Source: Nitrospira sp. (GTDB lineage: Bacteria; Nitrospirota; Nitrospiria; Nitrospirales; Nitrospiraceae). From it: 64,000 nucleotides of DNA. The DNA is taken from positions 50,760 to 114,759 of the forward strand of contig JAYTTD010000090.1 of NCBI GenBank assembly GCA_043745235.1, read 5' to 3'. The position numbers and the translations under genes are program-made. Numbering within the stretch: the stretch's first letter is position 1; every line of letters begins with the position of its first letter. Of the stretch, positions 38,716-61,011 are shown one piece after another. Under the pieces are notes generated by a model. That model was not told the origin of the DNA. It searched no databases and saw only the letters and a list, made by a program, of their open reading frames with translations.

Positions 38716-38720
38716 TAGAG

Positions 38721-38831: not shown

Positions 38832-38847
38832 TAAGCCGAGGAGGGAG

Positions 38848-40200: not shown

Positions 40201-40613
40201 CACGTATTGAGTCTGGACGTGATGCTACTGTCAGCTCCGATTTATTGGCAGCTACATTCAAAGCTCAAGAGGACGGCATGTCCATTCATATCCTAACGGT
40301 CGATCCCGAGAAGCCACCGTGAACAACAGACGATACCGCTTGCGCCGACCGGTCCTCATGCTCACCGCAACACAACCGGATCTTCTCACCGAATCGTTTC
40401 TCTCCTTTGCCCGCTCGATTGACAGGCAGCAGTTGCTCCGCACCATGTTCGTCCCCATCCAGCCGTCGGTTCCTGCGACCATTCCCTCAAACGTGCGGCA
40501 GCTTGACTACTCCTCTCCGTCATCTTGATCACTATCGCCTCCTAATCAACTTCTCCCTAGACAGGAGAACCCAACATAGGTAAGATCGAAAACATTAGGG
40601 TATATCTCACGCT

Positions 40614-40976
40614 ATGGCCACAATCCTTATTATTGACGACGAAGAATCAATCCGGAAGCTCTTGAAGGAAGTCCTTGAGAGGGCCACCCACCGTGTGCTC
40701 GAAGCCTGCGATGGTCGGGAAGGCTTGACTCTCTACCAGCAGAATAAAGTAGACCTGGTCCTCATGGACATCCTGATGCCAGGAACCGATGGCCTCGAAG
40801 CCACCTTACAACTGACGCGAGAATATCTCGACGCAAAGGTCATCGCCATGACTGGTGCGCAAGGCGACCGCAACTTCCTCGATGTCGCAAAACTCTTTGG
40901 CGCCCGTCGCGTCTTCGAAAAACCCTTCGACCTCGACAAGCTCGTCCAAGCCATCGACGAAGAACTCGCCAAATAG
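40614..40976 (+). CDS. single-domain response regulator (CheY-like receiver)
   Basis: 'ILIIDDEESIR', phospho-acceptor 'DLVLMDILMPG', 'VIAMTG' and 'KPF'. Confidence 0.9.
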   Translation: MATILIIDDEESIRKLLKEVLERATHRVLEACDGREGLTLYQQNKVDLVLMDILMPGTDGLEATLQLTREYLDAKVIAMTGAQGDRNFLDVAKLFGARRVFEKPFDLDKLVQAIDEELAK

Positions 40977-41174
40977 CGCTTCCCCTTCAGCTTCACAATT
41001 TCCGGATCGTTCGCTTCATACTCGGATCACGAGTGCACAGAGACAGCGCCGGACTGGATTCTTGCCTCAACTGATCACAGGTGCGGAACGAGCGAAACCA
41101 GAAAATTCTAGAAGTGACGGCTCGGGTCCGTCACAATCTGCTAAAGGCAGGAAGCCGACCGGACGAGGGAGAAT

Positions 41175-41645
41175 GTGACAAACCACACGGGGAAAATCGA
41201 GCGAACGCTGCTGCCGCTCTGGGGCCTACTCATTGCACTGGCCGGCACATTCCCGTTCACGAATTTTGTCGGGCATTCCCATTGGGAGCACATTCAATGG
41301 CTCCCGACCGCTGATACTTTTCGCTCACGGCGATTCCTGTTTGACATCGTCGCTAATATGGCCCTCTTTCTTCCACTGGGCTATCTTCTCGATCGATCCC
41401 TCACCACCACGACGGCTCGTCGCTCACTCTTCCTTACTGCCGGCGTTGCGGGCTTGCTCTCGCTGAGCATGGAATGGTTCCAAGTCTATTGCCACAACCG
41501 TTACCCCTCACCCACTGACGTAGTCAGCAATGTCACGGGAAGCCTCATCGGAGCCTTTCTGTCCATCCACCGCCAGAAAATGGTAGCCTCTCCACCGAAC
41601 CCTACGATTACTCCCGACCCACCGGATCGTAGCCACGCTCCTTAA
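41175..41645 (+). CDS. VanZ-family membrane protein
   Basis: Four TM segments. 'EWFQVYCHNRYPSPTDVVSNVTGSLIGAFL' is the typical VanZ C-terminal motif. Confidence 0.7.
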   Translation: MTNHTGKIERTLLPLWGLLIALAGTFPFTNFVGHSHWEHIQWLPTADTFRSRRFLFDIVANMALFLPLGYLLDRSLTTTTARRSLFLTAGVAGLLSLSMEWFQVYCHNRYPSPTDVVSNVTGSLIGAFLSIHRQKMVASPPNPTITPDPPDRSHAP

Positions 41646-41804
41646 GACAGCGCTCCAAACTGCTTATTGCGAATGGCTCGGCAGCAAGCGACGAAAGAGT
41701 CCGCACCGGGTATTGGGATAGCGGCCCCGTTTGGATGCCGCACAACCGAACCATCACAGCCCCTACCTGACAACCATCAACGCGACTGCATGGACTTCGT
41801 TGAC

Positions 41805-42659
41805 TCATCGGCTCCCACTGAGTTCTCTCCTCGCAAGTCCCCGCATCATCACCGGATCGGCGTACGCCACTTCGCTCAAGGCATCCATGAGATGCAGCCT
41901 TTTCGTTGCAACCAACTCCTTGGCCTTCAGATAGTTCTTCGCAGTAAGTCGTGCTACAGCCGGCTGACCGTTCACAATCTGACAAGCCAGAATTTCGCCG
42001 TTCACTTCAAGCGTGCCACCCTGCTCAACCAGCGTCTTGGCCTGCGCCGACGTAATGCCATGGAGTTGCGCGAACTCCTCCAGCCCTCCCGTTTCAACGA
42101 GTCGGCCATCCGGCATGATGCAGAGTCGCTTGAAATGCGGGGACCAATCCTTCCGGAAGTCGATGTATTTGATGTCTCCGCCCTTCGCGACAGCGCGATC
42201 CAATGTCCGGTAATCGAGTCCAAGATTCTTCTGCTCGAGTTTTGCCAGCAACTCTTCCGGCAACGTCCGGTGAAAGACCAGCGCCGCGACTTCAGCAAGC
42301 GGAATCCCCCGCGCCTGAGTCAATTGCTCCGCCTCGGCAAACTGCATGAGATCCAAGGTCCAGGTTTGCTTCGGAATCTCTCCGGTCGGATCGACTCGAC
42401 AGGCAAACAGCCCTCGCGTCAGCACCCCGCCGACCTGCGGATACACATAGACCCCGCCCTCGTTCAGCAGCCTGGTCATTGTCTCCAGCGGAACCTCATA
42501 GCTTTCCGACAAGACTTTCGCATGCGCGGGAAGATCTTCCCGGTGCGTCATCGCACAGGCCGTGACATTCCCTGGTGCATCGAACTCGGAATAATCCTCG
42601 ATCACGTTATAGAGGATCACCGACTTTGACTTACTCAACTTTTTCTTTATCTTAAACAT
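41805..42659 (-). CDS. hypothetical protein (284 aa), co-oriented partner of the SagB-like gene
   Basis: Balanced composition. The overlapping plus-strand ORF (41667..42629) is Arg-rich and looks like an antisense artefact. I recognise no family. Confidence 0.55.
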   Translation of the reverse strand: MFKIKKKLSKSKSVILYNVIEDYSEFDAPGNVTACAMTHREDLPAHAKVLSESYEVPLETMTRLLNEGGVYVYPQVGGVLTRGLFACRVDPTGEIPKQTWTLDLMQFAEAEQLTQARGIPLAEVAALVFHRTLPEELLAKLEQKNLGLDYRTLDRAVAKGGDIKYIDFRKDWSPHFKRLCIMPDGRLVETGGLEEFAQLHGITSAQAKTLVEQGGTLEVNGEILACQIVNGQPAVARLTAKNYLKAKELVATKRLHLMDALSEVAYADPVMMRGLARRELSGSR

Positions 42660-42705
42660 GAGAGATTAATCTCCAAGCCATTGAGATATCTATAATCACA
42701 CGGAA

Positions 42706-44469
42706 TCATCGATTCAGGTGATGATAGGGTGGTAGTGTCATCAATCTTCCATCCTCAACCGGTCCACCTACCGTAAAGTGGTAGAGCGACTGAAACGAAC
42801 GCGCCTTGATCCCCACGATCTCATGCACCGGATCGTCGAAGAAACATCCGATCCCGGTTGCCCGCACCCCCGCAGCTTCCGCTTCCAGGTACAGCACCTG
42901 CCCCAGCAACCCCGACTCCCAGAATAGACGTGGGTACCACCAAGCCCCTCCCTCCCGCAAGCGCCCTTCGAACTCGGCCATCATCCCCAGTGAGAAGGCA
43001 CTATCCCCAGCGATGTCTTGATGGCAACTCACTTGCACCGCGGCTTTTCGCGCATCGCCTTCAAGCAACCAGTAGAGAGGCAGATCCTCCGGACAACCTG
43101 GCGCCGGAGTCCAGATCAGCTCTGGATTCAGCGATTGCTGGATGAACGACAGCTTCAGTGGATCACGGACCAGAAAATAGAGCCCCGGCGTCAGACCCTC
43201 GACGCGGTGGACAAAGAGCATCACATGAATCGCCGGCTCGTAGGGCCAGACATCCCACGGCATCGGTCGATCCAATTGCGGCCGATCCGAGCGAGGCATC
43301 AGCAGCTGCATCATGTGGAAAAATGTCGTCGCGGAGATCGATGTCTTGCCATCGAACGATACCGCGCTCCGCCGCTGGCGAATGATCTGGCCGGCCAGCT
43401 GCCCCTCGTGAAACGTGAACGGTGAAACGTGAGAAGTCCGCGGGACCACGACCGAGACAAACGTTCGTTCAGAAGACGTCTTCCATGAAGCCTCTGCTGC
43501 TTCATCAATAATGTCCCAATGCACGCCATGTTCACCACTCAACCGATTGGCATTTCCATTCCACTTTCCTGCAGCGAGATCCTTGACCACCGCTGGATCA
43601 AGGAAAAGCGGGATATCGACCACATCCTTACGTTGCACGCCTAACGTTTCACCTTTCACATTTCCAGAAGGCCAAATCACCGCCAGACAGTCCGGATGTT
43701 CCGGCTCAACTTCTGTAAAGTCATCCACCCGATTGGTCCCCAACAATAGGGCAACCGTGTTCTGTTCCACACCATCCAATAGCGCCATGTTCCAGCCCAG
43801 CGTGGCGGCCGCGATCCGCGCCGAACCAATCGCATGACCGACATCGTGATTGCAGTAGCGAAACGCCCGCTCGCCATATTTCCAGGCCTCACGCCAATGC
43901 ACCGAAGTCAGCCCAAACAGAAAGGCGCCAGGCGGAAACAGTGCCAGCAGCAGAGCGACCTGTTCGGCAGGAAACTCTGCCCGAAACTCCAGACCATGCT
44001 CCTTCGGCGCGTAATGATAGAGCCCGGGATTCAGATCGAGGCCATCGATCTGCGGAAATACCGCATAGCCTTCCGTCGGATGCAGATTGCCGGACGACGG
44101 ATTACTCCGTAACGCCCATTCCATCTCCCCGCCTTTTTTCCACGCGGATAAGGCAAGCGCAAATTCGAAAAATCTGGAAAGGGAACGCATGTTCACAGGC
44201 TGACAAGGAACCGCCCCGAGCTGATAGATCGCGTCATAGGCCGGCGACAGCGGCTCCTCATCCGGCCTCAGCAACGGAAGCGGAATCAGTTGTGAACCTT
44301 CGAATCGCCGAAACGGATCAGGCTGATTCGCCCAATCCAGATACCCAAGCGCGCGAGCATAGCGATTGAAGTAATGCTTCGTCTGAACGTGATAGCGGAT
44401 GACCCGATCAATGGGATCGGTCGAAACAGGCTCGGCGGATGTAGCGGGAACTGGCTTCTCGGTGCTCAT
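42706..44469 (-). CDS. SagB/ThcOx-type double nitroreductase-fold dehydrogenase
   Basis: 587 aa. 'YHVQTKHYFNRYA...LDWANQPDPFR', 'RSNPSSGNLHP', 'YCNHDVGHAIG', 'RRSAVSF' and 'GIGCFFD' are typical of this family. Confidence 0.75.
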   Translation of the reverse strand: MSTEKPVPATSAEPVSTDPIDRVIRYHVQTKHYFNRYARALGYLDWANQPDPFRRFEGSQLIPLPLLRPDEEPLSPAYDAIYQLGAVPCQPVNMRSLSRFFEFALALSAWKKGGEMEWALRSNPSSGNLHPTEGYAVFPQIDGLDLNPGLYHYAPKEHGLEFRAEFPAEQVALLLALFPPGAFLFGLTSVHWREAWKYGERAFRYCNHDVGHAIGSARIAAATLGWNMALLDGVEQNTVALLLGTNRVDDFTEVEPEHPDCLAVIWPSGNVKGETLGVQRKDVVDIPLFLDPAVVKDLAAGKWNGNANRLSGEHGVHWDIIDEAAEASWKTSSERTFVSVVVPRTSHVSPFTFHEGQLAGQIIRQRRSAVSFDGKTSISATTFFHMMQLLMPRSDRPQLDRPMPWDVWPYEPAIHVMLFVHRVEGLTPGLYFLVRDPLKLSFIQQSLNPELIWTPAPGCPEDLPLYWLLEGDARKAAVQVSCHQDIAGDSAFSLGMMAEFEGRLREGGAWWYPRLFWESGLLGQVLYLEAEAAGVRATGIGCFFDDPVHEIVGIKARSFQSLYHFTVGGPVEDGRLMTLPPYHHLNR

Positions 44470-44661
44470 TGTGATGGTGAAGGCAGTCTACAGAGCGGCA
44501 GGGAGGAAAGTAAACGCATAGAGACAGAGATACGCTATAGACTGATAGCAGGGGTTCCACCACATGATGACGTAGTGGACAAGCGTTGGAATTTTCTGTA
44601 GGTTCAGCCTTCGACATCTCACGGAAACCTAGTGGCATAGGCCTATCTACTTGGGTGATGC

Positions 44662-45531
44662 ATGAAATCTGGCGAGGCTAAAGGACCTGAATTTATCCGC
44701 TTCTTCCGACCAATCCTTAAATTACTTCTCGAATCCGGTGGAACCAGCACGCCTGCAGAGATTGTTGATCGTTCAATTGAAATTGCAAAAGTTTCCGAAT
44801 CAGAGCAGGAAGCCGTCAATAAGAACGGACAGTCACGGATTAAGAACCAAGTTCACTGGGCACGCCAGTTTCTAGTCTGGGATGACTATCTGGATTCTTC
44901 TCGACGAGGCGTATGGAGTCTTACCGACAAGGGCAAAAGTGTCGAAGTAAGCAGATTAGACCCACTTAAAGTATACAAGAATGTTCAAAAAATCCGTTCC
45001 CGAGCGAAGCAGTCTCAAGAGCTGAAAGCTCCTTTGGTGGACGAAGCTCCTCCTTATGACCTAGCGAGTCAAGGCCACAGGGCTCGGCTGATCGAGCTAA
45101 TTAGATCTATATCACCAGATGGGTTTGAGCGCCTAAGTCAGCGGCTCTTACGGGAATCAGGCTTTCAACACGTTATCGTTACTGGAAGAGCAGGCGACGG
45201 CGGTATAGACGGAATTGGGACGCTGCAAGTTAATCCCTTCGTGAGCTTCAACGTCCTATTTCAGTGCAAACGATATCAAGGCGCTGTAACACCATCCCAT
45301 GTTCGCGATTTTCGCGGTGCCATGATGGGACGTGCAGATAAGGGTATAATTTTAACCACGGGAACGTTCACACTAGAAGCCAAGAAGGAAGCACGGCGTG
45401 ACGGAGTTCCCCCAATTGAGCTTGTTGATGGAGATGTTCTTGTTGACATGTTTGAGCGTCTTGAGTTGGGCCTCACACCAAAGCGAACCTACGATATTGA
45501 TGAAAAGTTTTTCGATGAGTATAAGAAATGA
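44662..45531 (+). CDS. mrr: Mrr-like type IV restriction endonuclease (Mrr_N winged helix + Mrr_cat)
   Basis: 'FERLSQRLLRESGFQHVIVTGRAGDGGIDGIG...FQCKRY...VRDFRGAM...KGIILTTGTFT'. Confidence 0.88.
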   Translation: MKSGEAKGPEFIRFFRPILKLLLESGGTSTPAEIVDRSIEIAKVSESEQEAVNKNGQSRIKNQVHWARQFLVWDDYLDSSRRGVWSLTDKGKSVEVSRLDPLKVYKNVQKIRSRAKQSQELKAPLVDEAPPYDLASQGHRARLIELIRSISPDGFERLSQRLLRESGFQHVIVTGRAGDGGIDGIGTLQVNPFVSFNVLFQCKRYQGAVTPSHVRDFRGAMMGRADKGIILTTGTFTLEAKKEARRDGVPPIELVDGDVLVDMFERLELGLTPKRTYDIDEKFFDEYKK

Positions 45532-45706
45532 GCGCCAAAAATTGGACTGGGAAAGGTGTCAAGAACGATTTCAGGTGATCGCAGCTATCTCCATCGTACA
45601 GCATCATTCCTCTTATTGACCGCTCTTTCCCTCCCCGCGTATCCTGCCATCGCTGCTGCGACACGTGACAACGAAACAGCGTGAGCCGTTAGGCAAAGGA
45701 GATTGC

Positions 45707-46588
45707 ATGAGTCAGGTCCAGAAGGGTATCCTCGCTCCTGTTCCACCACTCGCCCGTTATCTTTTGTTCACTATCGCCGCAGGAAAGAATCCCGCCGGTT
45801 CTTTGCGCAATCTGTGCAAGTTGGCCGACGGTGAGAAGACGGTCGTGGGATTGGGCCAATCACTCGTGCGGGCCCTTGGTCGTGAAGTCCCAGGACTTGA
45901 AGTATTCCCCAACTATGCCGCTCCTGGCTTCAACGTGCCTTCGACATCGGCTGTGGTATGGTGCTGGCTTCGAGGAAACGATCGCGGCGAACTCGTCCAT
46001 CGCGCACGCGCGATTGTCCAAAGCGTCGCCCCTGTCCTTCAATTGCAGCACACGATAGATGGCTTCCGGTATAAATCAGGTTTCGACCTTTCCGGCTATG
46101 AGGACGGGACTGAAAATCCGAAGGGCGCAGCCGCGATCAAAGCCGCCGTGGTCGCCGGACAGAGAACCGGCCTCGACGGAGGGAGTTTCGTCGCGGTTCA
46201 GCAATGGGTCCATAACCTGGATACATTGGAAGCCATGACGACCAAAGAACAGGACCGCACGATCGGGCGCCGGAAACGCGACAATAAAGAACTCGGCAAG
46301 GCACCGGCTTCCGCTCACGTCAAGCGGACCGCGCAGGAAAGTTTCGATCCCACCGCGTTCATTGTGAGACGGTCCATGCCATGGGCCGACGCGCATCAGG
46401 CAGGCTTAGTGTTCGTGGCGTTCGGAAACTCCTTCGACGCGTTCAACGCGCTTCTACGCAGGATGGTCGGCGCCGAAGACGGCATCGTAGACTCGTTGTT
46501 TACGTTCACACGCCCTATTTCCGGGAGCTATTTTTGGTGCCCGCCGATGAAAAACGGGTATCTCGACTTACGGGCAGTCGGCTTATGA
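45707..46588 (+). CDS. Dyp-type peroxidase
   Basis: GxxDG motif 'GYEDGTENP', 'RRSMPW' and 'LVFVAF'. ATG at 45707 with an AAGGAG RBS. Confidence 0.88.
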   Translation: MSQVQKGILAPVPPLARYLLFTIAAGKNPAGSLRNLCKLADGEKTVVGLGQSLVRALGREVPGLEVFPNYAAPGFNVPSTSAVVWCWLRGNDRGELVHRARAIVQSVAPVLQLQHTIDGFRYKSGFDLSGYEDGTENPKGAAAIKAAVVAGQRTGLDGGSFVAVQQWVHNLDTLEAMTTKEQDRTIGRRKRDNKELGKAPASAHVKRTAQESFDPTAFIVRRSMPWADAHQAGLVFVAFGNSFDAFNALLRRMVGAEDGIVDSLFTFTRPISGSYFWCPPMKNGYLDLRAVGL

Positions 46589-50849: not shown

Positions 50850-51947
50850 TTGCCACTGATCTGGGCTGCGATTTCCGCACATGGGTTTGGACATGCCGCA
50901 CAGGTCGTGCCGGTCCTCAATGCCCTCGGGCGGCTCGTTCCCGACCTGCGCGTCATCTTACGAACCACCGTCCCCGCCTCGTTCTTCAACGATCGCCTCG
51001 TGATTCCCTGGGAACTCAGTGCCGTGCAACAAGATGTCGGCTGTATCCAGGATGGCCCTCTGACGATCGATGTGGAGGCGACCTGGCGCGAGCACGAGCG
51101 ATTTCACGCGACATGGACCGACCGGATACAGCATGAAGTGACGGCAATGAAGGCTGCACGGCCGGATGTGGTCCTTGCCGACACGCCCTACCTGGCCCTC
51201 GCGGCTGGAAAAGCCGCGGAGATTCCCACCGTCGCCTTGGCGAGCTTCACCTGGGACTTGATTCTCTCTGAGTACGTCGCTCCGCCACCCGTCGACAGAT
51301 CGGCGCTCCTTCATGCAATTCGTCAGAGCTACGCGCAAGCTGATGTGGCCCTGCGCATGATCCCTGCCCCAAAGATCGATATCATTCAGCGTATCGTCGA
51401 TATTGGCCCCATCGCCGAACCGGCCGCTTCAGCTCGCGACCAGCTCGCCACAGTGCTAACTCTGGCACCGGAGGAACGGACTGTGCTCGTGGGATTTGGC
51501 GGTATTCCGCTGACCTCACTCCCATTTGCCGATCTAGAGTTACTCGCAGGTTATCGGTTTCTATTCGATGGACCCATTCCACCAGGCAGCACCAAATTCG
51601 TATCGACGCACTCCCTGCCCTTCTCATTCAAAACATTGATGGCCTCTGTCGATGTCATCATGACCAAACCCGGTTACGGCACCATTGTTGAGGCAGTCGC
51701 GCTTCAACAGCCAATCGTGTACGTCCGCCGATACAATTTTGCCGATGAACTGCCGCTCGTCGACTATCTGCACCGCTACGGACGCGGCGTTGAATTGTCG
51801 ATCGATGACTTCATGGAAGGCCGCTGGGAACCAACGTTGAGACAGGTGCTTGCAGTGCCGCAACCAGCCTTCACGCCTCCGGCATTGACTGGCGCTCACG
51901 ATGCGGCCACCATTTTCGCCTCCTATCTCACCAAGTCAGGACCCTGA
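50850..51947 (+). CDS. GT-B-fold glycosyltransferase-like protein (MurG/UGT-like)
   Basis: TTG start. N-terminal 'AISAHGFGHAAQVVPVLNAL' and C-terminal 'MTKPGYGTIVEAVALQQPIVYV' resemble GT1/GT28-type donors. The call is by recollection. Confidence 0.5.
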   Translation: MPLIWAAISAHGFGHAAQVVPVLNALGRLVPDLRVILRTTVPASFFNDRLVIPWELSAVQQDVGCIQDGPLTIDVEATWREHERFHATWTDRIQHEVTAMKAARPDVVLADTPYLALAAGKAAEIPTVALASFTWDLILSEYVAPPPVDRSALLHAIRQSYAQADVALRMIPAPKIDIIQRIVDIGPIAEPAASARDQLATVLTLAPEERTVLVGFGGIPLTSLPFADLELLAGYRFLFDGPIPPGSTKFVSTHSLPFSFKTLMASVDVIMTKPGYGTIVEAVALQQPIVYVRRYNFADELPLVDYLHRYGRGVELSIDDFMEGRWEPTLRQVLAVPQPAFTPPALTGAHDAATIFASYLTKSGP

Positions 51948-51949
51948 CC

Positions 51950-52759
51950 ATGCATCTGCTTGGACTAGTGATTCAATACGTCTCCAACGGTTGCAAACGA
52001 ATCGGTGGGGCGGTCTTTCGTATCACTCAATTCCTAGACGCTCTATTACCGGCACTCTTCTCCCCCACTCAACTTTCCAAACTCATTCACGTGCACTACG
52101 AAGACCGCTATCGTGATGCTTCTGGACGCTATTCCGCGGAGGCCTACGGAACGGAGCTTTTAGAGTGGGAGGAAGACGTGCTCGCGCGCCACAAGATCGC
52201 GTCTGGCACAGCCGTGGTGCTTGGAGCCGGAGTGGGTCGTGAATCCATCGAGCTCGCCAGACGGGGACTGCATGTGATTGGACTTGATATCAGTCGAGAC
52301 GCCCTCCATCTGGCCGCTCTCACCGCGCGGGGAAAGTCTATACCCGTCACCTTTCTCCAGGCGAGCTTCTACGATATCCCGACCCTCCCTGCCCGCATCG
52401 ATTACATCTTCCTCTCCGGCATCATGTACAGCTCCATCCCTGGACGGCAGGCGCGGCAAGCCTGGCTCAAAGGCCTGCGCACCCATCTGAAACCTGGCGG
52501 ACTCGCCGTCCTGAACTATTACATTGACCGAACAACGGAAACTCAGACAGATCGGCGTGCCCGCACGTTCAATTCCTGGCTGGCCAGCCTGCCAGGAGCG
52601 AATCCCTTGTATCAACCGGGCGACCTCGTGTCTCAAGAGCACTTTCTCCACGCCTTCTTGAGCGAAGAAGAACTTCGGTCTGAGCTGACCGAAGCAGGAG
52701 CGACGATCGTTCAACTCAACTGGGACAAGCAGTTCACCGTGATCGCATGGCCTTATTAA
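51950..52759 (+). CDS. class I SAM-dependent methyltransferase
   Basis: Motif I 'AVVLGAGVGRESIELARRG' followed by 'VIGLDIS'. It starts 2 nt after the glycosyltransferase-like gene. Confidence 0.8.
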   Translation: MHLLGLVIQYVSNGCKRIGGAVFRITQFLDALLPALFSPTQLSKLIHVHYEDRYRDASGRYSAEAYGTELLEWEEDVLARHKIASGTAVVLGAGVGRESIELARRGLHVIGLDISRDALHLAALTARGKSIPVTFLQASFYDIPTLPARIDYIFLSGIMYSSIPGRQARQAWLKGLRTHLKPGGLAVLNYYIDRTTETQTDRRARTFNSWLASLPGANPLYQPGDLVSQEHFLHAFLSEEELRSELTEAGATIVQLNWDKQFTVIAWPY

Positions 52760-52848: not shown

Positions 52849-53160
52849 ATGAACACCACCTCCATCTACGCCAGACATCCTGATTATGTACAGCGCGACG
52901 TAGCGGGAGAATGTATCCTCGTTCCCATCCGCCGATCCCTCGCAGAAGCGAACAGCATTTACGTCTTGAACGAAACGGGGGCGGCCCTATGGAATCGTCT
53001 TGACGGCACACATCGGCTGCAAGACATCACGGCGGCCTTCTGCATAGAGTACGACGTCACAACAGATCAATTGCACCGGGATGTTGAGACCCTCCTGGCA
53101 GACCTACTTTCGATTCATGCCATTGAAGAGGTTGCCGTTGCCGATGCTCCCACGGGATAA
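52849..53160 (+). CDS. PqqD-family peptide chaperone (RRE-type leader-binding protein)
   Basis: 'VAGECILVPI......IYVLNETGAALWNRLDGTHRLQDITAAFCIEYDVTTDQLHRDVETLLADL' is the standard PqqD pattern. An alternative TTG start lies at 52822. Confidence 0.8.
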   Translation: MNTTSIYARHPDYVQRDVAGECILVPIRRSLAEANSIYVLNETGAALWNRLDGTHRLQDITAAFCIEYDVTTDQLHRDVETLLADLLSIHAIEEVAVADAPTG

Positions 53161-54058
53161 ACTCAATCACCTCCCAGAGCGGTTTCCCGTCGCCTGCCAG
53201 TGGGAAATCACCTGCCGCTGCAATCTGCATTGCGTGATGTGTTACACGGATTGTTTCAATCGACCTGACTTCATCCGCCAGGAACTCGCCACCTCAGACA
53301 TCCTCCGCATCATGGATGAGATGGCCAACGCCGGCACGCTCGAACTCTGCTTGACCGGCGGCGAACCAATGATACGGCCTGATTTTTTTCAGCTGTACGA
53401 GCACGCCATCCGCCGCGGTTTTCTTGTGACGGTGTTCACCAATGGCACATTGATCACGGAGGCTGCCGCGGACCATTTCGCGACGCTACGTCCCCATCAA
53501 ATCGAGATCAGCCTGCACGGACTGACAAAAGAGATCTTTGAGCGCATCACCCAAGGCACAGGGTCCTATCACCGCTGTCTTGATGGTATCAAGCTGCTGC
53601 TCGATCGACAGGTTCCCCTCACACTCAAGAGCACGGCGATGACGCTCAACCAGCATGAAATTCTTGCCATCAAACAGTACGTCGCCTCGCTTGGATCGGT
53701 CCGCTATAAACTCGGGGAAGAGATGCGGCCAGAACTCGATGGCGGAGCTGGCCCGTTTCACTACGCGCTCTCCGAAGGAGACTTGAGAATCCTCAATCAA
53801 CAAGACGCCGATCTTTGGAAAGAATCCTGCCAGCAACCACGCACGGATGATCTCCCCCCCTGCCGAAGCGGGATGCAACGATTCCACATCGACGCCTATG
53901 GGAAACTGCAACTCTGCTCAGGCAATCGACGGCAGAGCTACGATCTTCTGAACGGGTCGTTCCGGGAAGGCTTCTTCGAGGCCATGCCGACATTCGCGTG
54001 CGAGTGGAAAGCGCCCGTGGCGTCAGAACCGATGCGCCCGACGGTGTACCATGCCTGA
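53144..54058 (+). CDS. radical SAM enzyme with partial (twitch-like) SPASM domain, paralog 1
   Basis: CX3CX2C 'CNLHCVMC', 'LTGGEP' and 'CRSGMQRFHIDAYGKLQLC' (CX12GX4C), but no CX2CX5C block. It overlaps the PqqD stop. Confidence 0.88.
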   Translation: MLPRDKLNHLPERFPVACQWEITCRCNLHCVMCYTDCFNRPDFIRQELATSDILRIMDEMANAGTLELCLTGGEPMIRPDFFQLYEHAIRRGFLVTVFTNGTLITEAAADHFATLRPHQIEISLHGLTKEIFERITQGTGSYHRCLDGIKLLLDRQVPLTLKSTAMTLNQHEILAIKQYVASLGSVRYKLGEEMRPELDGGAGPFHYALSEGDLRILNQQDADLWKESCQQPRTDDLPPCRSGMQRFHIDAYGKLQLCSGNRRQSYDLLNGSFREGFFEAMPTFACEWKAPVASEPMRPTVYHA

Positions 54059-55181
54059 AGCCAGAGCCATTCCCACAATGCAGTATGGCGAGTTCAGCCG
54101 CATGGCGTATGAACGTGCGGTGCAACAAGACCGCATCATCAAAGCACAACTCGAGCTCACCTATCGCTGTAATTTGCACTGCCGCCATTGCTACACCGAT
54201 CCCTACAACGGCAAGGAGTTCTTCCCCCGCGAATTGAGCATAGCGGAGATTTACCGCCTCCTCGGCGAGATGCGCGACATGGGTGTGATGTGGCTCAATC
54301 TCACCGGTGGCGACATCTTCATGCATCCTGATTTCTTCGAGATCTATGAGGCGGCCAATCGGCAGGGCTTCCTGCTCCAGCTCTATACCAACGGCACGCT
54401 CTTTACCCGCGCGATCATCGAAAGATTAAAGACCATGCCCCCGTTTACCATCGATATCTCGTGCCACTCGGTGAACGAAGAACGGTTCGACTGGTTCACG
54501 CAAGTAGCAGGGTCCTATCGCGCCTTCATGCGCGGGATGATGTGGCTGCGGGAGAGTGGATTGCCCTTCACGTTGAAAACCAAGTTGATGGATTGGAACA
54601 AAGACGAGATCGACGACATCCGGACCTTCACCGAATCGTTTGGCCAACAGTTCGGCTATACCACGTCACTCTCACCACGACTGAACGGAGATTGCACGTC
54701 GCTCGCCTATCGAATTGACCCGCAAGATTTGAAACGCCTGGAACAGACCGATGTCCTCAGAGAGGCCGAAGATCTTTGCGCCGCACAAGAGGAGATTGCC
54801 ACACCTGACAGCGACCGCCTCTACCGGTGCGGATGCGGAACCAACTCCATTCACATCAATGCCTGGGGCGAGCTCGGCACCTGCACATTGCAGTATGAAC
54901 ATCGAGTCTCGCTTCGGACACATTCCTTGCAAGATGCGGTCGCACAGGTGTTTGGAGCCGTCCGATCGATGCGGTATCAGAGCGACAGTCCTTGCCGCTC
55001 CTGTGACATTCACCGATTCTGCGAGAAGAAACCGACCGATGCCCGATGGGAACAAGGTGAGGCCGAAGCCCCCATCCCCTACGATTGTGATATTGCGTTA
55101 GTTCGTGCGGAAACCACCGTTCGCCAGCCCCTAATTCACCCGTTGAGGAAAGGGGCAGTGGCCGCGGTGAAAACACAATAA
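54051..55181 (+). CDS. radical SAM/SPASM-domain enzyme, paralog 2
   Basis: 'CNLHCRHC', 'LTGGD', 'CGCGTNSIHINAWGELGTC' and 'CRSCDIHRFC' (CX2CX5C). It overlaps the stop of paralog 1 by 8 nt. Confidence 0.9.
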   Translation: MPEARAIPTMQYGEFSRMAYERAVQQDRIIKAQLELTYRCNLHCRHCYTDPYNGKEFFPRELSIAEIYRLLGEMRDMGVMWLNLTGGDIFMHPDFFEIYEAANRQGFLLQLYTNGTLFTRAIIERLKTMPPFTIDISCHSVNEERFDWFTQVAGSYRAFMRGMMWLRESGLPFTLKTKLMDWNKDEIDDIRTFTESFGQQFGYTTSLSPRLNGDCTSLAYRIDPQDLKRLEQTDVLREAEDLCAAQEEIATPDSDRLYRCGCGTNSIHINAWGELGTCTLQYEHRVSLRTHSLQDAVAQVFGAVRSMRYQSDSPCRSCDIHRFCEKKPTDARWEQGEAEAPIPYDCDIALVRAETTVRQPLIHPLRKGAVAAVKTQ

Positions 55182-55218: not shown

Positions 55219-55473
55219 ATGACCGAGAAAAAACCCTACAGCCCTCCGCAACTGTACGAAGTGACTTTGGACCAGGAGCAGGCGATTCTGACCGCCTGCA
55301 GTTTGACGACAATGTCCGTCGCTGCCGGTGTCGGCACGAACGGCTGTCGTGTAAGCGGCCGTTGTGAAACCGCCATGTGCGGTGGCGGCTCACCGGGAGG
55401 ATGCAAGCGATCATCCCTCGGGATGGTGTTCTGTGGCGTGACCTGCCACGACAGCGGCATTCGGGCATCATAG
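55219..55473 (+). CDS. candidate RiPP precursor peptide (84 aa, 7 Cys)
   Basis: AGGAGA RBS 8 nt before the ATG. Leader-like 'MTEKKPYSPPQLYEVTLDQEQ' contains YxxPxL. Cys/Gly-rich C-terminal part 'C..C.....C....CGGGSPGGC.........C...C' ends in '...GIRAS'. It is embedded between the maturase genes. Confidence 0.6.
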   Translation: MTEKKPYSPPQLYEVTLDQEQAILTACSLTTMSVAAGVGTNGCRVSGRCETAMCGGGSPGGCKRSSLGMVFCGVTCHDSGIRAS

Positions 55474-55481
55474 GTTTTTCT

Positions 55482-56387
55482 ATGCTCATTGCCCTGCAAC
55501 TTGGTGGATCTGTCTTTCACCTCCGAGAACCAAAAGATTATCCCCTTCTGGCATGGCCGATCCGTCCCTTTGATGTGTTCCTCGCACCGCCGGATGTACC
55601 GCCGGATTTCCAGATAGAGGTGACGGTCGTCCCGCACTTGCCTGAATTGGCAACCGGGCTACTCCGATTCGATGCAGGCCAAGGATATTGGAAACTCTTC
55701 GAGTCTGATGCCGGCTTTGTGATTGAGAGTCTCAGTCCATTACTCCTTCAGCCGCGTGCTCGCGCCCAGGTCTCTCACGACTACCGCACAATCCGCGCAT
55801 GGGTTCTGCCAGAACTGCATTTAGGGCAAGTCGGTTGGAGTCCGATGCACCTGTTCAATCCCATCGTGGAAATTTGCCTCCTCTCTCGCCTCGCCTTGGA
55901 TGGAGGATTACTCCTTCATGCCGCAGGCCTCACAACCCAGGAAGAGGGCTACATCTTTACCGGTGACTCAGGAGCCGGCAAATCTACCATCGCACAGTTT
56001 TTCGCGGAACGAGGCGCGCTGGTGCTCAGCGATGAACGACTGATTATCCGCAAGAGCGCCGATAACTTCATACTCTACGGCACACCATGGGTCGGATCCG
56101 GGAACTATGCCCACAATGCGCAGGCCCCGCTCACACAGCTCTATTGCATCAGTCATGGGACGGAGCAGCATACGATCTCTCTCTTGTCCCCTCGCGCCGT
56201 CTCGCAAGAACTCTTGCGCCAGTGCTTCCTTCCGCTCTGGAGTCGCGACGCGCTCGAAGCGACGCTGGCAACCGTTACGGATCTCGTACAGCAGATTCAC
56301 TGCCGGGCGCTGGCAGCGCTCAAATCGCCGGATGTCGTAGATGTTGTGCTGACTCAACGCCACCTATCCCCGATAGGTTCACGATGA
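55482..56387 (+). CDS. HPr-kinase-related (HprK C-terminal-like) P-loop kinase
   Basis: 'LLLHAAGLTTQEEGYIFTGDSGAGKSTIAQFFAERGALVLSDERLII' matches the HprK_C core. It starts 9 nt after the precursor stop. Confidence 0.75.
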   Translation: MLIALQLGGSVFHLREPKDYPLLAWPIRPFDVFLAPPDVPPDFQIEVTVVPHLPELATGLLRFDAGQGYWKLFESDAGFVIESLSPLLLQPRARAQVSHDYRTIRAWVLPELHLGQVGWSPMHLFNPIVEICLLSRLALDGGLLLHAAGLTTQEEGYIFTGDSGAGKSTIAQFFAERGALVLSDERLIIRKSADNFILYGTPWVGSGNYAHNAQAPLTQLYCISHGTEQHTISLLSPRAVSQELLRQCFLPLWSRDALEATLATVTDLVQQIHCRALAALKSPDVVDVVLTQRHLSPIGSR

Positions 56388-57442
56388 AAACAATCGCCGC
56401 TGCCGACTTTCTTGATGCTCTGTCAGCGAAGGCTGCGCAGGCACGCAGGCCTGAGGGAGTCACGTTCGAATTGACGTATGGCTGCAACCTGCGTTGCGTC
56501 CATTGTTACAACCCGACGCATCGTGCCTTGCCGCATGAACTCACGACCTCAGAGATTTGCTCGCTATTAAACCAAATCGCCGACCTTGGAGTGCTCACTG
56601 TAACCTTCACAGGAGGCGAACCGAGCGTGCGCCCAGACATCGAACACATTCTTCGGCATGCACGCCAACAGGGTTTGGTTATACAACTCTTGACCAATGC
56701 CACGCGCATCACGCCTTCGTTCGTCACAGTGCTCAGAGAAATCGGTGTGGCGCAGATGAACGTCTCTATCTACGGAGCAACGGAAGCGACCTATGAACGA
56801 ATGACCGAGGTTGCCGGCTCCTATCGGCAGTTTCGGCAAGGCTTGAACTGCCTCGCTGATGGTCAGTTACCGGTGACCGTCCGAATGCCGGTCACCACCA
56901 TCAACTACGAGGAGATTCACGCCTGTCGGGAATTGACAGAATCCCTGCATATGAAGTTCCAATACTGCCTGGAAATCATGACGTCTATTACAGGCGACCC
57001 GACGCCACTCCAATATCGGCTTGACCCTGAGCGAAAAGTCCGAATCGATCAAGAGCTACTCTCATACCGCACGATGGACCAGCCCGAAGCATCCTGTTCG
57101 ACTCAACAGCCTTTCATCGAATGTGCCTGCGGTCAGAGTCGATTTGCGATTACTCCCTATGGCGAAATGAATCTCTGCACCGCCTTCCCTATTCCGCGCT
57201 ATGATCTCCGCACCGGCACGGTGAAAGAAGGTTGGGAGATCCTTAAACAGACGGTCGATCAGGCTCATCCCAACCATCGTTACGAATGTCCGACCTGTGA
57301 GGTACGGCCTCACTGCCGCCAGGGTCGGAGCGACTCCTGGCTTGAAACCGGGGACATGAGTTCGTGCCTTCCACACTATAAAGAATGGGCTGAATTGGAG
57401 CATCGCACCTATGCCCTCCTCGACCCTCGACAACCTCGCTGA
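56384..57442 (+). CDS. radical SAM/SPASM-domain enzyme, paralog 3
   Basis: 'CNLRCVHC', 'FTGGEP', 'CACGQSRFAITPYGEMNLC' and 'CPTCEVRPHC'. ATGA overlap with the kinase stop. Confidence 0.9.
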   Translation: MKTIAAADFLDALSAKAAQARRPEGVTFELTYGCNLRCVHCYNPTHRALPHELTTSEICSLLNQIADLGVLTVTFTGGEPSVRPDIEHILRHARQQGLVIQLLTNATRITPSFVTVLREIGVAQMNVSIYGATEATYERMTEVAGSYRQFRQGLNCLADGQLPVTVRMPVTTINYEEIHACRELTESLHMKFQYCLEIMTSITGDPTPLQYRLDPERKVRIDQELLSYRTMDQPEASCSTQQPFIECACGQSRFAITPYGEMNLCTAFPIPRYDLRTGTVKEGWEILKQTVDQAHPNHRYECPTCEVRPHCRQGRSDSWLETGDMSSCLPHYKEWAELEHRTYALLDPRQPR

Positions 57443-58376
57443 CGCGTACACCCAAGTCAGCCTGATCAACAAACGGCTGCTCGATGAGTGTGAGATCGTA
57501 GGCCTGGCATTCCAGCGACAGGGCATCGAGTGTATTCTCCTGAAAGGAGCTGATCTGCTCTCACGCCTCTACGGAGTGCGTGGGATGAGGCCCCTCTCCG
57601 ATGTGGATCTGCTGGTCCATGAACAAGACCTTCCTGCCATTCATCGGCTGCTGATTGAAACCGGCTTTGTACAACAGATCGACGGCAACCCGGCCTATGT
57701 CTCACCTCAATCCACACTCTCTCTGGATCTGATCTCGGGACTTTGGTATCTCGACGAAGAGGGACTTGCCGCGCTGTGGGGACGGGCTCGGACTCGACCG
57801 CTCGGCCAGCTGACGGTCAAACAACTGGCCGCCGACGACCTGCTGCTCTATTTGATCGCCTACTCGGTCGTCCACCGAGGGCACCTTTGCCCTTCCTTTT
57901 TCACCGACCTCCGGCTGCTGATCGAGAAGGAACCGCTCGACTGGCCCACGCTTGTCGAGAATGCGGGCCGGCATTACCTGAAGATTCCTCTCTACCACGG
58001 CCTTCGCCAGCTGGGATTATCGAGCCCAGCCATAGGAATTCCTTCTGCCGTCATCCAACAGCTCGCGCCATCGACCATGGCTGAACGGACACTGGAGTTT
58101 CTTTTTCGGCGTTTGGTGACGACCCAGCCCCTCCCCGAACTTGGACACTTCTTATTGTGGATCACGCAACCGCCAGGGCGCAGGCTGGCCTGGCTTCGTC
58201 GCACCCTCTTCCCATCATTGCTCTTCCTCACCTATCGCTATGGAAATGAAAGTACGAAGCGACCCCGCCGCATCAAAATCACCAGATGGTGGCAATTGGC
58301 ACGAGCGGGAAACATCTTGATTGCCCGCGTGCTGATCCGGCTCGTCATTGACCAGCCAACAAGGGCAACCTCGTGA
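57411..58376 (+). CDS. NTP_transf_5-type (uncharacterised) nucleotidyltransferase family protein
   Basis: 'ILLKGADLLSRLYGVRGMRPLSDVDLLVHEQDLPAIHRLLIETGF' is the signature region of this family. It overlaps the rSAM stop by 32 nt. Confidence 0.75.
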   Translation: MPSSTLDNLADAYTQVSLINKRLLDECEIVGLAFQRQGIECILLKGADLLSRLYGVRGMRPLSDVDLLVHEQDLPAIHRLLIETGFVQQIDGNPAYVSPQSTLSLDLISGLWYLDEEGLAALWGRARTRPLGQLTVKQLAADDLLLYLIAYSVVHRGHLCPSFFTDLRLLIEKEPLDWPTLVENAGRHYLKIPLYHGLRQLGLSSPAIGIPSAVIQQLAPSTMAERTLEFLFRRLVTTQPLPELGHFLLWITQPPGRRLAWLRRTLFPSLLFLTYRYGNESTKRPRRIKITRWWQLARAGNILIARVLIRLVIDQPTRATS

Positions 58377-59191
58377 TTCACCTCGTACCTTCTCTCAGTT
58401 TGGATGGTCGTTTTGCTGCGCAGGATTTACCAGACGCGCTCCAACTGCCTCTTCTGAACAGTATGGTCGTGCCTCGTGTCGTCTCATCGAGCATGACGCC
58501 GACGATTCAAGCAGGCGACGAACTTGAAATCGGTCCTCCGACCTCCCTCACCCTAGGCGCGATCGTGGTATTCCGGCTCGACACCATGCTCGTCTGCCAC
58601 CGCATCACTGCCATTCATTCACAAGGCATGCTCTCGACGAGAGGCGACGCCACGCAGGGCGCCTGCGAGATCGTTCAGCCAGGCTCTGTGATCGGAGTGG
58701 TCAGGGGAGTGCTACGCGAGGGCTCTCACGTGTCTCTTGGGCAAAGCCCGCACAGAGCATCAGCCGAGGCACCACCGACCAGCATCAAATGTCGCGTTCA
58801 GACTGTGATCCTCCGGTCAGCCACCGGGAGTATTCGTATCCTTGCGGGAGTCACACTCTTTCAGCATATGCTGACCCTATTGCTCCGATGGACAGCCACG
58901 ATCGATGTCCTCACTCCGGCACCACTCCAATCCCTCCCCTCCCACGCCAAGGTCGCCTCGTTCACATTCCGAATGTTTCCACACATTACCGGACTTCTCG
59001 CTGTTTCCAGCGGGCAGAAATCGACACGGTATGTCCTCCGGCTGGGACCGTGGCGACTGGCCCAATACGACCCGGAGACAAAGTCCCTCCTGCTCCGCCA
59101 ATCCCTCTGGGGTGCCGGCCTGGAGCCGTTCGTTCGACAAATACTCGTAACTACTCAGGTAGATAGGCTGAAGGCTCATGGAATAGGATAA
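58373..59191 (+). CDS. S24/S26 (signal-peptidase-I-like) serine peptidase domain + unknown C-terminal domain
   Basis: 'VVSSSMTPTIQAGDELEI', 'GAIVVFRLD', 'CHRITAI' and 'STRGDAT'. GTGA overlap with the upstream gene. The C-terminal ~140 aa are unassigned. Confidence 0.6.
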   Translation: MIHLVPSLSLDGRFAAQDLPDALQLPLLNSMVVPRVVSSSMTPTIQAGDELEIGPPTSLTLGAIVVFRLDTMLVCHRITAIHSQGMLSTRGDATQGACEIVQPGSVIGVVRGVLREGSHVSLGQSPHRASAEAPPTSIKCRVQTVILRSATGSIRILAGVTLFQHMLTLLLRWTATIDVLTPAPLQSLPSHAKVASFTFRMFPHITGLLAVSSGQKSTRYVLRLGPWRLAQYDPETKSLLLRQSLWGAGLEPFVRQILVTTQVDRLKAHGIG

Positions 59192-59252: not shown

Positions 59253-59395
59253 TTGCGCTTCGGCCTTCAGTCTTCAGCCTAAATACCTGAGTAGTTGCCA
59301 ACAAACACACATCCTTTTGCCCGTTCTGTCCGTAGGATGCTATAGTCGTGGCGGACATGAGATGATGCTAGCTGTTCCTCATAACTCGCTCGCGT

Positions 59396-59998
59396 ATGGA
59401 TAACCCCCCACGACTCGCTACATCGATGATCGACCCAACCTTGCTCGCTCGTGTCGCCAAAGGCGATCAGCAGGCGTTCAGCCAGCTCTATGACCATTCG
59501 AGTACGCTCTTGTTCACATTGGCAGTCAGAATCTTAGGAAATCATGAGGAAGCGGCGGAGCTCTTACAGGATGTCTATTTGGAAGTCTGGCGGAAGGTTT
59601 CCCGTTATGACGTCGGACGTGGAACCCCGGTCGCATGGTTGGTCACCCTCACCAAGAGTCGGGCCATCGACCGGCTGCGGGCCAGAGCGGCACGAGGCTA
59701 TCGGGCCACGAGCTCGCTGGAATCCGAACCTGCTGCACAGGTAGCCGATCTGGGTCCGAGCCCGTTTGAGACGCAGGCTGATCAAGAACTGCGTATTGCA
59801 GTTGGCGCAGCTGTGGCGGGATTGCCCCAGGCACAACAGCAGGCGATTGGACTAGCCTACTACGAAGGACTCTCCCATACTGAGATCGCCGCGCGCTTGA
59901 ACCAGCCGCTTGGGACCGTGAAGACACGGATCAAACTTGGGATGTCGAAACTCCGTGATGGTCTCCAACCGTGGCGGAACCAAGGTGATCTCCAATGA
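59396..59998 (+). CDS. ECF-type RNA polymerase sigma-70 factor
   Basis: Region 2 'LLQDVYLEVWRKVSRYD...WLVTLTKSRAIDRLR' and region 4 'LAYYEGLSHTEIAARLNQPLGTVKTRI'. An alternative start lies at 59426. Confidence 0.92.
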   Translation: MDNPPRLATSMIDPTLLARVAKGDQQAFSQLYDHSSTLLFTLAVRILGNHEEAAELLQDVYLEVWRKVSRYDVGRGTPVAWLVTLTKSRAIDRLRARAARGYRATSSLESEPAAQVADLGPSPFETQADQELRIAVGAAVAGLPQAQQQAIGLAYYEGLSHTEIAARLNQPLGTVKTRIKLGMSKLRDGLQPWRNQGDLQ

Positions 59999-61011
59999 CG
60001 CATGAAGAACTCCAAGAATCGGTTCCCCTATATGCTGCTGGCGCGTTGGACCGAATCGAACGACAGGCGCTGGAAGCCCACTTACTCTCCGGCTGCGCCT
60101 CCTGTCACAGTGCGCTGAAGGACTACCAATCCGTCGCCGCGCTCCTCCCGCTCAGCCTCAGTCCAACCCGCCCTCCGCGCTCCCTCAAAGCCACGATCAT
60201 GGCCGAACGAAACCCCACGCCGATTCCAGTGGAAGCGGCGACTAATGGACCGGCTCGGCCAAGTCTTGAGCCCGGCGAATGGATGGAGCACCTCTTTCCT
60301 CCTGTCGCCCCTGCCCGATCGTTGTCATTACCTTGGGCCCTTGGCCTGGCTACCCTCCTAATCGTGGGAGTCGGCGGATATCTCGCGTGGAACGTGTCGA
60401 CACAACGTTCAACCGACACATCGAACATTCAGCAGCTCGAAGCATCGCTCCAGGATAAGTCGGGAAAACTTGCCGCTGTGCAGCGTGAGGCCACCGACCA
60501 AGCAAAAACCCTCGACGAATTGCGCAACGAATTACAGCAACGAACGAACGAAGCGGCGGAAGCCAAGGAACAACTAGCTCTGCGTGAGGCTGAACTGGAA
60601 GAGACTCGTGTGCAATTAAGCCAGCGAGGCGCCGGTCGCGCCATGGGGACTCCGCAAGATGAACTAGCCGCAATCCTTCGAATTCCCAACGTCAAAGCTG
60701 TGTCTCTCACCGGATCGGATATGGCAAAGCGGGCCGCGGGATTCCTCCTCTACGATGCTCAAACCCAAAAAGTCTGGCTCTACTCCGTGAACCTTCCGGA
60801 AAATCCCACGGGCACGACCTATCAGCTGTGGGCCATTCACGACAAACCCGTGAGCGTCGGGACCTTTCAGCTCGCTACCGGAGAAACCGCTCACCTACTG
60901 ATGAGGACAGTGCCAAGCTTCAGCGATGCAAAAACTTTCGCTGTCAGCCTTGAGCCTTCAGGCGGTCGCCCGCAACCGACCGGACCGATATATCTTTTGA
61001 GCCGATCGTAA
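59995..61011 (+). CDS. anti-sigma factor (zf-HC2 N-terminus, TM segment, RskA-like C-terminal domain)
   Basis: 'HLLSGCASCHSAL', one TM segment, a coiled coil and C-terminal 'YQLWAIHDKPVSVGTF...FAVSLEPSGG'. ATGA overlap with the sigma gene. Confidence 0.85.
   Translation: MTHEELQESVPLYAAGALDRIERQALEAHLLSGCASCHSALKDYQSVAALLPLSLSPTRPPRSLKATIMAERNPTPIPVEAATNGPARPSLEPGEWMEHLFPPVAPARSLSLPWALGLATLLIVGVGGYLAWNVSTQRSTDTSNIQQLEASLQDKSGKLAAVQREATDQAKTLDELRNELQQRTNEAAEAKEQLALREAELEETRVQLSQRGAGRAMGTPQDELAAILRIPNVKAVSLTGSDMAKRAAGFLLYDAQTQKVWLYSVNLPENPTGTTYQLWAIHDKPVSVGTFQLATGETAHLLMRTVPSFSDAKTFAVSLEPSGGRPQPTGPIYLLSRS

Follow-up and report, generated by a model that had tools for sequence, protein, structure and literature searches.

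What do an HprK-like kinase and a nucleotidyltransferase-fold enzyme of the NTP_transf_5 family (PF14907) do on either side of a radical S-adenosylmethionine (SAM) gene? The question is raised by a stretch of 64,000 nt from Nitrospira sp. (assembly GCA_043745235.1, contig JAYTTD010000090.1, positions 50,760-114,759, forward strand), the whole of which is referred to here as the window. A preliminary description of this DNA had proposed that the two enzymes, at 55482-56387 and 57411-58376, tailor the C-terminal serine of a precursor peptide ending in ...IRAS; the coordinates and the family scans agree with this arrangement, and the 84-aa open reading frame (ORF) directly upstream of the kinase ends in ...CHDSGIRAS. 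The precedents on which it drew are likewise correct, namely the phosphorylation of the C-terminal Ser of lasso precursors (PMC9266682) and the further decoration of this phosphoserine by a nucleotidyltransferase, PsmN, with hexose(s) (PMC6993621). The two genes are best explained as encoding tailoring enzymes of a Nitrospira operon for a peptide made on ribosomes and modified post-translationally (RiPP), a predicted, translationally coupled unit composed of a PqqD-type RiPP recognition element (RRE), the radical SAM enzymes rSAM1 and rSAM2, the precursor, the kinase, rSAM3, the NTP_transf_5 enzyme and a SipW-like peptidase. On balance, the kinase would be expected to phosphorylate the terminal residue of the precursor, Ser84, and, more tentatively, the PF14907 enzyme might then decorate that phosphate. 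The only ribosomal peptides for which Ser (poly)phosphorylation has so far been demonstrated are the lasso peptides and, since 2026, the linear polyphosphorylated peptides (LPPs). The locus described here, about 54 Nitrospira relatives and their soil cousins indicate that a kinase/signal-peptidase/nucleotidyltransferase toolkit has been combined with radical-SAM cross-linking in several phyla, the hosts including Nitrospira, key nitrifying (nitrite-oxidising) bacteria. The predicted product is a phosphorylated, radical-SAM-modified natural product, for which a series of +80n Da on Ser84 is expected if the prediction is true.

The precursor, encoded in one copy in this genome, carries Y7-x-x-P10-x-L and E20-Q-A-I-L24 in its leader, seven Cys in its core and the tail D78-S-G-I-R-A-S84. 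A terminal Ser is found in all 14 precursors from ten same-genus genomes and in 69 of the 75 precursor-like ORFs recovered from species genomes, the other six being truncated or frameshifted ORFs from which the whole tail is gone. Every ORF that retains the tail ends in Ser, so that the C-terminal residue is conserved among orthologous precursors, a point on which the preliminary description had made its proposal depend. Column by column, in the 67 unique relatives that keep the tail and with the leader Tyr taken as position 0, Y0 and P3 occur in 67/67 and E13-Q14-A15-I16-L17 in about 99%; position 18 (core +3) is Ser in 45, Thr in 14 and Ala in 8, corresponding to Thr25 in the window, position 20 is Cys in 66/67 and position 21 is Ser in 64/67. 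A hypervariable core middle then separates the leader from the tail, D-S-G-x-R-x-S, in which the consensus residue is kept by 62 (D, -7), 62 (S, -6), 63 (G, -5), 64 (R, -3) and 67 (S, -1) of the relatives. The terminal Ser is thus the sole tail residue without any replacement, whereas 5/67 have N, M, L or F in place of the internal tail Ser. The number of Cys is odd in 66 of the 67 cores (loci L025-L078), with three in 44, five in 15 and seven in 7, and one core has four; each Nitrospira cluster has three radical SAM enzymes.

The same C-terminal residue recurs outside Nitrospira. Among candidate precursors that were picked by their leader motif only, a terminal Ser occurs in 19 of 23, compared with 12% of the background ORFs of the same loci, and, when the candidates are grouped by leader family, in about 7 of 10-12 families, covering Aminicenantes, Actinomycetes, Burkholderiales and soil metagenomes with unrelated cores. 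In the Aminicenantes (L080, L081, L104), where the order is PqqD-rSAM-precursor-kinase, the tails read ...PGS or ...NGS; in the actinomycete type (L079, L106), whose leaders EEAVLxxC are homologous to the EQAILxxC of Nitrospira, they read ...VGS or ...SGS. A large family from soil and peat metagenomes (L086, L111, L114-L122, L125, L128, L132-L137, L141) is ordered precursor, SipW-like peptidase, HprK-like kinase, PqqD and rSAM/SPASM, and combines an LPP-like leader, Y-x-K-P-x-F-R-H-E-x-V-F-E-T-M-A-L-A-C, the "FET" of which resembles the LPP cleavage motif, with cores of three Cys and tails of the form [RK]-x-S, such as ...RKAS, ...RKNS and ...KKVS in L086, L116, L119, L125, L128, L132, L133, L135 and L141. 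A basic residue at -3 is common to the soil and Nitrospira families. In seven loci, the same motif search found a lasso-type candidate precursor, and in 5/7 of these positive controls (L093, L096, L099, L103 and L168, with lasso genes confirmed or detected for L093, L099 and L168) the precursors end in Ser, as published (PMC9266682). Of all features, only the terminal Ser goes along with the kinase in most of the sampled lasso-type and rSAM contexts, which makes it the most likely acceptor, and, since the pattern persists with or without PF14907, it appears to be tied to the kinase.

A further locus on metagenome contig Ga0208244_102170 (L105:235-1289) has a Nitrospira-like leader, VELKPEEAALTAC, and a ...LPGS tail, and lies beside genes for a kinase and a signal-peptidase-like protein; no rSAM gene is seen in the 6.3 kb of this locus, which may represent a linear, LPP-like relative outside Bacillota.

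The kinase matches HprK-like families only, namely HprK_rel_B (6e-10), HprK_rel_A, ScmC and hpr-ser of NCBIfam and Hpr_kinase_C of Pfam (8e-4), and all of these scores lie far under the curated cut-offs. Its AlphaFold2 (AF2) model (pLDDT 93, pTM 0.89) matches, along both of its domains, ATP-dependent phosphoenolpyruvate carboxykinases (PEPCKs) and, along the C-terminal one, HprK/P; HprK/P and PEPCK share one fold. The key residues are His146 (55917-55919), the P-loop G161-T169 (55962-55988) and Asp184-Glu185 (56031-56036), the last two of which fall on the catalytic D178-D179 of L. casei HprK/P in a profile alignment. Across 46 homologues there is no variation in His146, in the P-loop G161-x-S-G-x-G-K167-S-T or in a GTPW motif further downstream, and hardly any in S183-D184-E185-R186. 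The catalytic residues are therefore intact apart from Glu in place of the second Asp, a conservative change with which kinase function may be kept; the D-E form is common in rSAM-associated homologues and in Smithella loci, whereas lasso-associated relatives have D-D. A close ortholog (E < 1e-80) is present in 10 of 24 other same-genus genomes sampled.

The preliminary description had suggested a phylogeny of the kinase against PadeK-like and HprK_rel_A/B clades. Homologues were labelled by verified context, either rSAM/PqqD clusters or lasso clusters, the latter defined by an Asn-synthase cyclase and a transglutaminase B2 (L093, L099, L100, L024); the tree does not include PadeK, PsmK or LppK of Bacillota, and its lasso reference consists of Gram-negative and Nitrospira lasso-cluster kinases. 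In the maximum-likelihood tree, a branch with 97/93 support separates two groups: the rSAM-associated kinases, all of which fall together with L105 and a myxobacterial-type group, and the lasso-associated kinases, including those of Nitrospira, with the Smithella NTP5-PqqD-kinase loci. The window kinase is thus set apart from the sampled lasso kinases and, by sequence, falls in a clade of its own kind that spans phyla and goes with rSAM clusters; the tree rules out a recent recruitment from the Nitrospira lasso cluster. Membership in HprK_rel_A/B or ScmC was also rejected, the NCBIfam cut-offs being far from reached by the window kinase and by its sister clades too.

Two observations in the genus stand beside this tree. 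A true lasso cluster, with genes for PqqD, transglutaminase B2, Asn-synthase cyclase, a PRMT-like methyltransferase, an HprK-like kinase and a 541-aa NTP_transf_5 protein, occurs in another Nitrospira species (L024:2395-8762, in G001:C12) and in L023, and the genus therefore uses the kinase/PF14907 pair in two RiPP contexts; the lasso precursor was not located in L024. A 2.8-kb contig labelled Thaumarchaeota archaeon (VBPP01000351.1, L062) carries a Nitrospira-type rSAM2-precursor-kinase-rSAM3 segment and nests within the Nitrospira kinase clade; its binning as an archaeon is probably wrong.

The second enzyme scores 97.6 bits against PF14907, for which the gathering threshold is 31.2. K45-G46, D64-x-D66 (57600-57608) and D106 are invariant in 39 homologues and fit the G[SG]...DxD...D set of nucleotidyltransferases, and the model (pLDDT 89) has a polymerase-beta-type nucleotidyltransferase core, which suggests that the enzyme is probably catalytic. 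PDB sequence searches returned nothing useful for it; in structure, the model resembles MenT1, LnuA and ANT(2'')-Ia, the last of which is also a structural match reported for PsmN, and, weakly, FKRP, which transfers ribitol phosphate from a CDP-activated donor. Given this likeness to FKRP, phosphotransfer rather than nucleotidyl transfer is possible.

From these data we infer phosphorylation and its site, in which order the steps occur, what the second decoration is and how the core is cross-linked, as follows. The YxxPxL leader would be bound by the RRE, and the kinase, with ATP, would phosphorylate and possibly oligophosphorylate the side chain of Ser84 with the leader still attached. The three rSAM enzymes would introduce cross-links at the Cys of the core, which number three, five or seven, and a further group, by the precedent of PsmN a hexose, would be added to the phosphate by the PF14907 enzyme. 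Lastly, the signal-peptidase-like enzyme would take the leader off, probably after the invariant E-Q-A (E20-Q21-A22).

A more speculative extension, which we consider distinctly unlikely, is that an oligophosphate on the terminal Ser serves as an NTP-like donor, from which the PF14907 enzyme would move the peptidyl-Ser-phosphate to the hydroxyl of a sugar or glycan with release of phosphate, acting as ANT(2'') does with ATP, the peptide replacing the nucleoside and the glycan being made or extended by the adjacent glycosyltransferase (GT). If true, a radical-SAM-stapled peptide would be joined to carbohydrate by a phosphodiester, a new RiPP class in nitrifiers, and a general mechanism would be available for PF14907 enzymes in lasso, LPP and rSAM clusters.

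Several points weigh against phosphorylation at Ser84 followed by decoration. In the LPP cluster, which has the most similar gene set of the characterised systems, the site of the kinase LppK is core Ser3 and not the C-terminus, and LppN has no detectable activity, which leaves the PF14907 step with one experimental precedent (PMC13381572). A nearly invariant Ser is also present at core +6 (S28 in the window; 64/67), and the terminal Ser could be required instead by an rSAM enzyme or for export. The window kinase has H-K-D-E, with Glu for the second catalytic Asp, where lasso kinases have H-K-D-D, and, its clade being separate from all sampled lasso-associated kinases, the transfer of function from PadeK spans a deep split. 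Candidate precursors without a terminal Ser occur in the distant kinase/rSAM clusters L079b, L139/L143 and L147, and, among sequencing runs, the sequence is present in DNA (metagenome) runs only.

The alternative that survives best, although unlikely, follows the LPP system: the kinase would (poly)phosphorylate the core at +3 (Thr25) or +6 (Ser28) and thereby prime cleavage by the peptidase, and the C-terminal tail would serve otherwise. The RRE, the HprK-like kinase, the TIGR02228-like peptidase and NTP_transf_5 do make up the LPP core, LppK targets core Ser3, the unphosphorylated LPP precursor is poorly cleaved, and the spacing from the leader Tyr to +3 is 18 residues in both the LPP motif and the Nitrospira leaders, with Ser at Y+21 in 64/67. 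However, Y+18 is Thr in the window, a residue that LppK does not accept, and, because it is Ala in 8/67 relatives, the Thr25 position is a poor universal acceptor. The Aminicenantes, actinomycete and soil precursors have no Ser at either of the LPP-equivalent positions (A, G, F or L at +3) and yet end in Ser, and LPP C-termini are variable, unlike those of the Nitrospira precursors. By sequence comparison, the terminal Ser is therefore a better candidate for phosphorylation than the LPP-equivalent position.

A second alternative, which we regard as decidedly improbable, assigns the terminal Ser and the DSGxRxS tail to another partner, either the rSAM enzymes, as a cross-link acceptor or recognition element, or export and processing, and gives the kinase a substrate elsewhere. 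The rSAM/SPASM and PqqD genes are present in every clade whose precursors end in Ser, and the Cys number is odd in 66/67 cores, both of which would suit this assignment; nevertheless, the sampled lasso-type loci, in which a kinase and no rSAM gene is detected, mostly have Ser-ended precursors, and there the Ser is the demonstrated kinase target. To our knowledge, no rSAM chemistry requires a C-terminal Ser, which also counts against this alternative. Finally, it is very improbable that the HprK-like protein is no peptide or protein kinase at all and acts as a scaffold or nucleotide-dependent chaperone, with PF14907 working independently, for example by direct nucleotidylylation of a hydroxyl, since homologues from different phyla all keep the P-loop, His146 and Asp184, the D-E form is found widely in the superfamily and HprK/P shares its fold with PEPCK, even though the family scores are all far under the curated cut-offs, the second catalytic Asp is Glu, PEPCK, which is no protein kinase, is among the best structural matches, and ANT and LnuA-like folds adenylylate hydroxyls directly.

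The terminal phosphorylation proposed here is embedded in a gene set (Table 1) that is densely packed and partly overlapping on the + strand between 52.8 and 59.2 kb; for instance, the start of rSAM3 overlaps the stop of the kinase by 1 nt (TGATG). The complete gene order is syntenic in about 54 species-level Nitrospira genomes, where it runs from a hypothetical gene through TPR, GT-like, methyltransferase, PqqD, rSAM1, rSAM2 and one to three precursor genes to the kinase, rSAM3, NTP_transf_5, the peptidase, an extracytoplasmic function (ECF) sigma factor and an anti-sigma factor, and, because of this conservation, the genes are real and not chance ORFs.

Table 1. Positions in the window of the cluster genes, the precursor tail and the two genes upstream
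Feature	Position	Strand	Basis
GT-B-like glycosyltransferase candidate, 365 aa, possible accessory tailoring gene	50850..51947	+	weak family match
Class I SAM-dependent methyltransferase	51950..52759	+	Methyltransf_25/11/12 above gathering thresholds
Discrete PqqD-type RRE	52849..53160	+	PF05402, 62 bits
Radical SAM/SPASM maturase 1 (rSAM1)	53144..54058	+	PF04055, 81 bits; SPASM-type maturase models
Radical SAM/SPASM maturase 2 (rSAM2)	54051..55181	+	PF04055, 83 bits
Precursor peptide, 84 aa	55219..55473	+	AGGAG ribosome-binding site; ends ...CHDSGIRAS
Conserved C-terminal tail DSGIRAS	55450..55470	+	terminal Ser84 codon 55468-55470
HprK/PEPCK-fold P-loop kinase, 301 aa, predicted peptide Ser kinase	55482..56387	+	HprK-like matches and AF2 fold
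Radical SAM/SPASM maturase 3 (rSAM3), between kinase and nucleotidyltransferase	56387..57442	+	PF04055, 89 bits
PF14907 (NTP_transf_5) nucleotidyltransferase-fold enzyme	57411..58376	+	97.6 bits
Archaeal/SipW-type signal-peptidase-I-like protease, 272 aa, predicted leader peptidase	58373..59191	+	TIGR02228 top match, PF00717

The RRE, whose start was set by ortholog alignments, finds its best NCBIfam matches among lasso PqqD chaperones and its best PDB sequence matches in TbiB1 and the 2026 entries 9x8z_B and 9x90_B. The orthologs of rSAM1 are 60-79% identical, rSAM2 matches the models of NirJ2, mycofactocin and sactipeptide maturases over its full length, and rSAM3 has a full-length match to GeoRSP_rSAM of 81 bits, under the cut-off of 400. 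The peptidase reaches 40.4 bits with TIGR02228 (cut-off 51.85); its S40, M41, P43, D49, H76 and R77 are invariant, and the catalytic Ser40 and His76 and the GD motif are thus kept. It has no obvious N-terminal membrane anchor, and the Nitrospira form extends at its C-terminus by a further, poorly conserved stretch of about 150 aa, which is missing from the soil-metagenome homologues (about 150 aa in total).

Upstream of the operon, the GT candidate has no Pfam match; its only family match is the NCBIfam MJ1255/VC2487 glycosyltransferase, at a weak 24 bits, and there is a weak PDB sequence match to a UDP-glycosyltransferase. It is syntenic with the cluster in most Nitrospira loci and could be the "partner" postulated for LppN by the LPP authors; with the PF14907 enzyme and this candidate partner side by side, the locus is a natural system that could help to settle the role of this family. 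The methyltransferase is kept beside the cluster in divergent loci without the GT (L055, L077, L130). Downstream, after a gap of 204 nt, an ECF sigma factor and an RskA-type anti-sigma factor (59396-61011) are syntenic in most Nitrospira loci; the sole sigma-70-like site of the region (59317-59346) lies just upstream of this pair, and, in a scan of the region for promoters and terminators, matches were no more frequent than in shuffled sequence. The GT and the sigma/anti-sigma pair may be merely conserved neighbours. Further upstream, 34073-46588 holds genes unrelated to the cluster, coding for a BACON/fn3 repeat protein, the glycogen branching enzyme GlgB, a 587-aa nitroreductase-domain protein (- strand), an Mrr-type restriction endonuclease and a DyP peroxidase.

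Among known systems, the closest characterised gene set is that of the LPPs and not the paeninodin lasso system. LPPs are made by LppA/K/B/S/D/N of Paenibacillus alginolyticus (Popov et al., Nat Commun 2026; PMC13381572), where a SipW/TIGR02228-type signal peptidase acts as the leader peptidase, an MsbA-like pump is encoded, LppK places up to four phosphates on core Ser3 and does not accept S3T, the leader motif is YxxPxVLxHQxIxFET|xxS, unphosphorylated precursor is poorly cleaved, and LppN, according to the domain list of the supplement, belongs to PF14907. Of the five core genes of the LPP set, four have counterparts in the Nitrospira operon: a discrete PqqD RRE, an HprK-like kinase and NTP_transf_5 stand in one cluster with a predicted SipW/TIGR02228-type leader peptidase (below the family cut-off, as given above), which would be the functional analogue of LppS, and the leaders share YxxPx[L/V], with one to three precursor genes per cluster. 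Unlike the window, which has three radical SAM genes within the operon, the LPP system yields a linear peptide with no radical SAM genes reported, and the terms "radical SAM" and "Nitrospir" are not found in the text or supplements of the paper (PMC13381572). The two also differ in the cleavage motif (FET versus EQA), the core +3 residue (Ser versus Thr), the C-terminus (variable versus an invariant terminal Ser), the exporter (MsbA-like in LPP, whereas no ABC transporter was found by Pfam among the cluster genes and selected neighbouring ORFs in 34-61 kb) and the phylum (Bacillota versus Nitrospirota), both LPPs and paeninodins being restricted to Bacillota according to the LPP authors (PMC13381572).

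The phosphorylated lasso systems resemble the window in pairing an HprK-like kinase and an NTP-transferase with a Ser-ended precursor, and their RRE is of the lasso B1 type to which that of the window is similar. PadeK, ThcoK, SyanK and PsmK (poly)phosphorylate the C-terminal Ser of leader-bearing lasso precursors (PMC9266682), the state of the substrate that is also proposed for the window kinase, and, in pseudomycoidin, the attachment of one or two hexoses to the phosphate requires PsmN, an NTP-transferase that is uncharacterised (PMC6993621). The lasso kinases require a His-Lys-Asp-Asp motif (PMC9266682), with D158/D159 in PsmK (PMC6993621), whereas the window kinase has H-K-D-E and falls in a separate clade. 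A lasso cluster was rejected for the locus itself, as no match to PF00733 (Asn-synthase-like cyclase) or PF13471 (B2 peptidase) was found among the ten cluster proteins.

The GeoRSP and SynChlorMet (Scm) sets of NCBIfam, which combine an HprK-related kinase B or ScmC with PqqD and rSAM/SPASM proteins, give the best or near-best NCBIfam matches of the kinase, and the window cluster has three rSAMs together with PF14907 and the peptidase. Membership was rejected for both, the scores against the cut-offs (in bits) being 38.7/200, 18.6/100 and 81/400 for GeoRSP (TIGR04355/04302/04303) and 22/125, 24/100, 92/400 and 83/400 for SynChlorMet (TIGR04249/04248/04250/04251); no description of their chemistry was found in the literature searched. 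The combination that the preliminary description had called new is therefore new with respect to experimentally characterised chemistry, but not as a gene set, since NCBIfam already names HprK-like/PqqD/rSAM sets. With sactipeptides and ranthipeptides, the window shares a Cys-rich core, SPASM-type maturases and an RRE, and no kinase or terminal-Ser tailoring is described for these in the literature searched. The locus is filed, as regards its predicted product, under serine tailoring of the LPP/lasso type, here in Nitrospirota and on a Cys-rich peptide modified by radical SAM enzymes.

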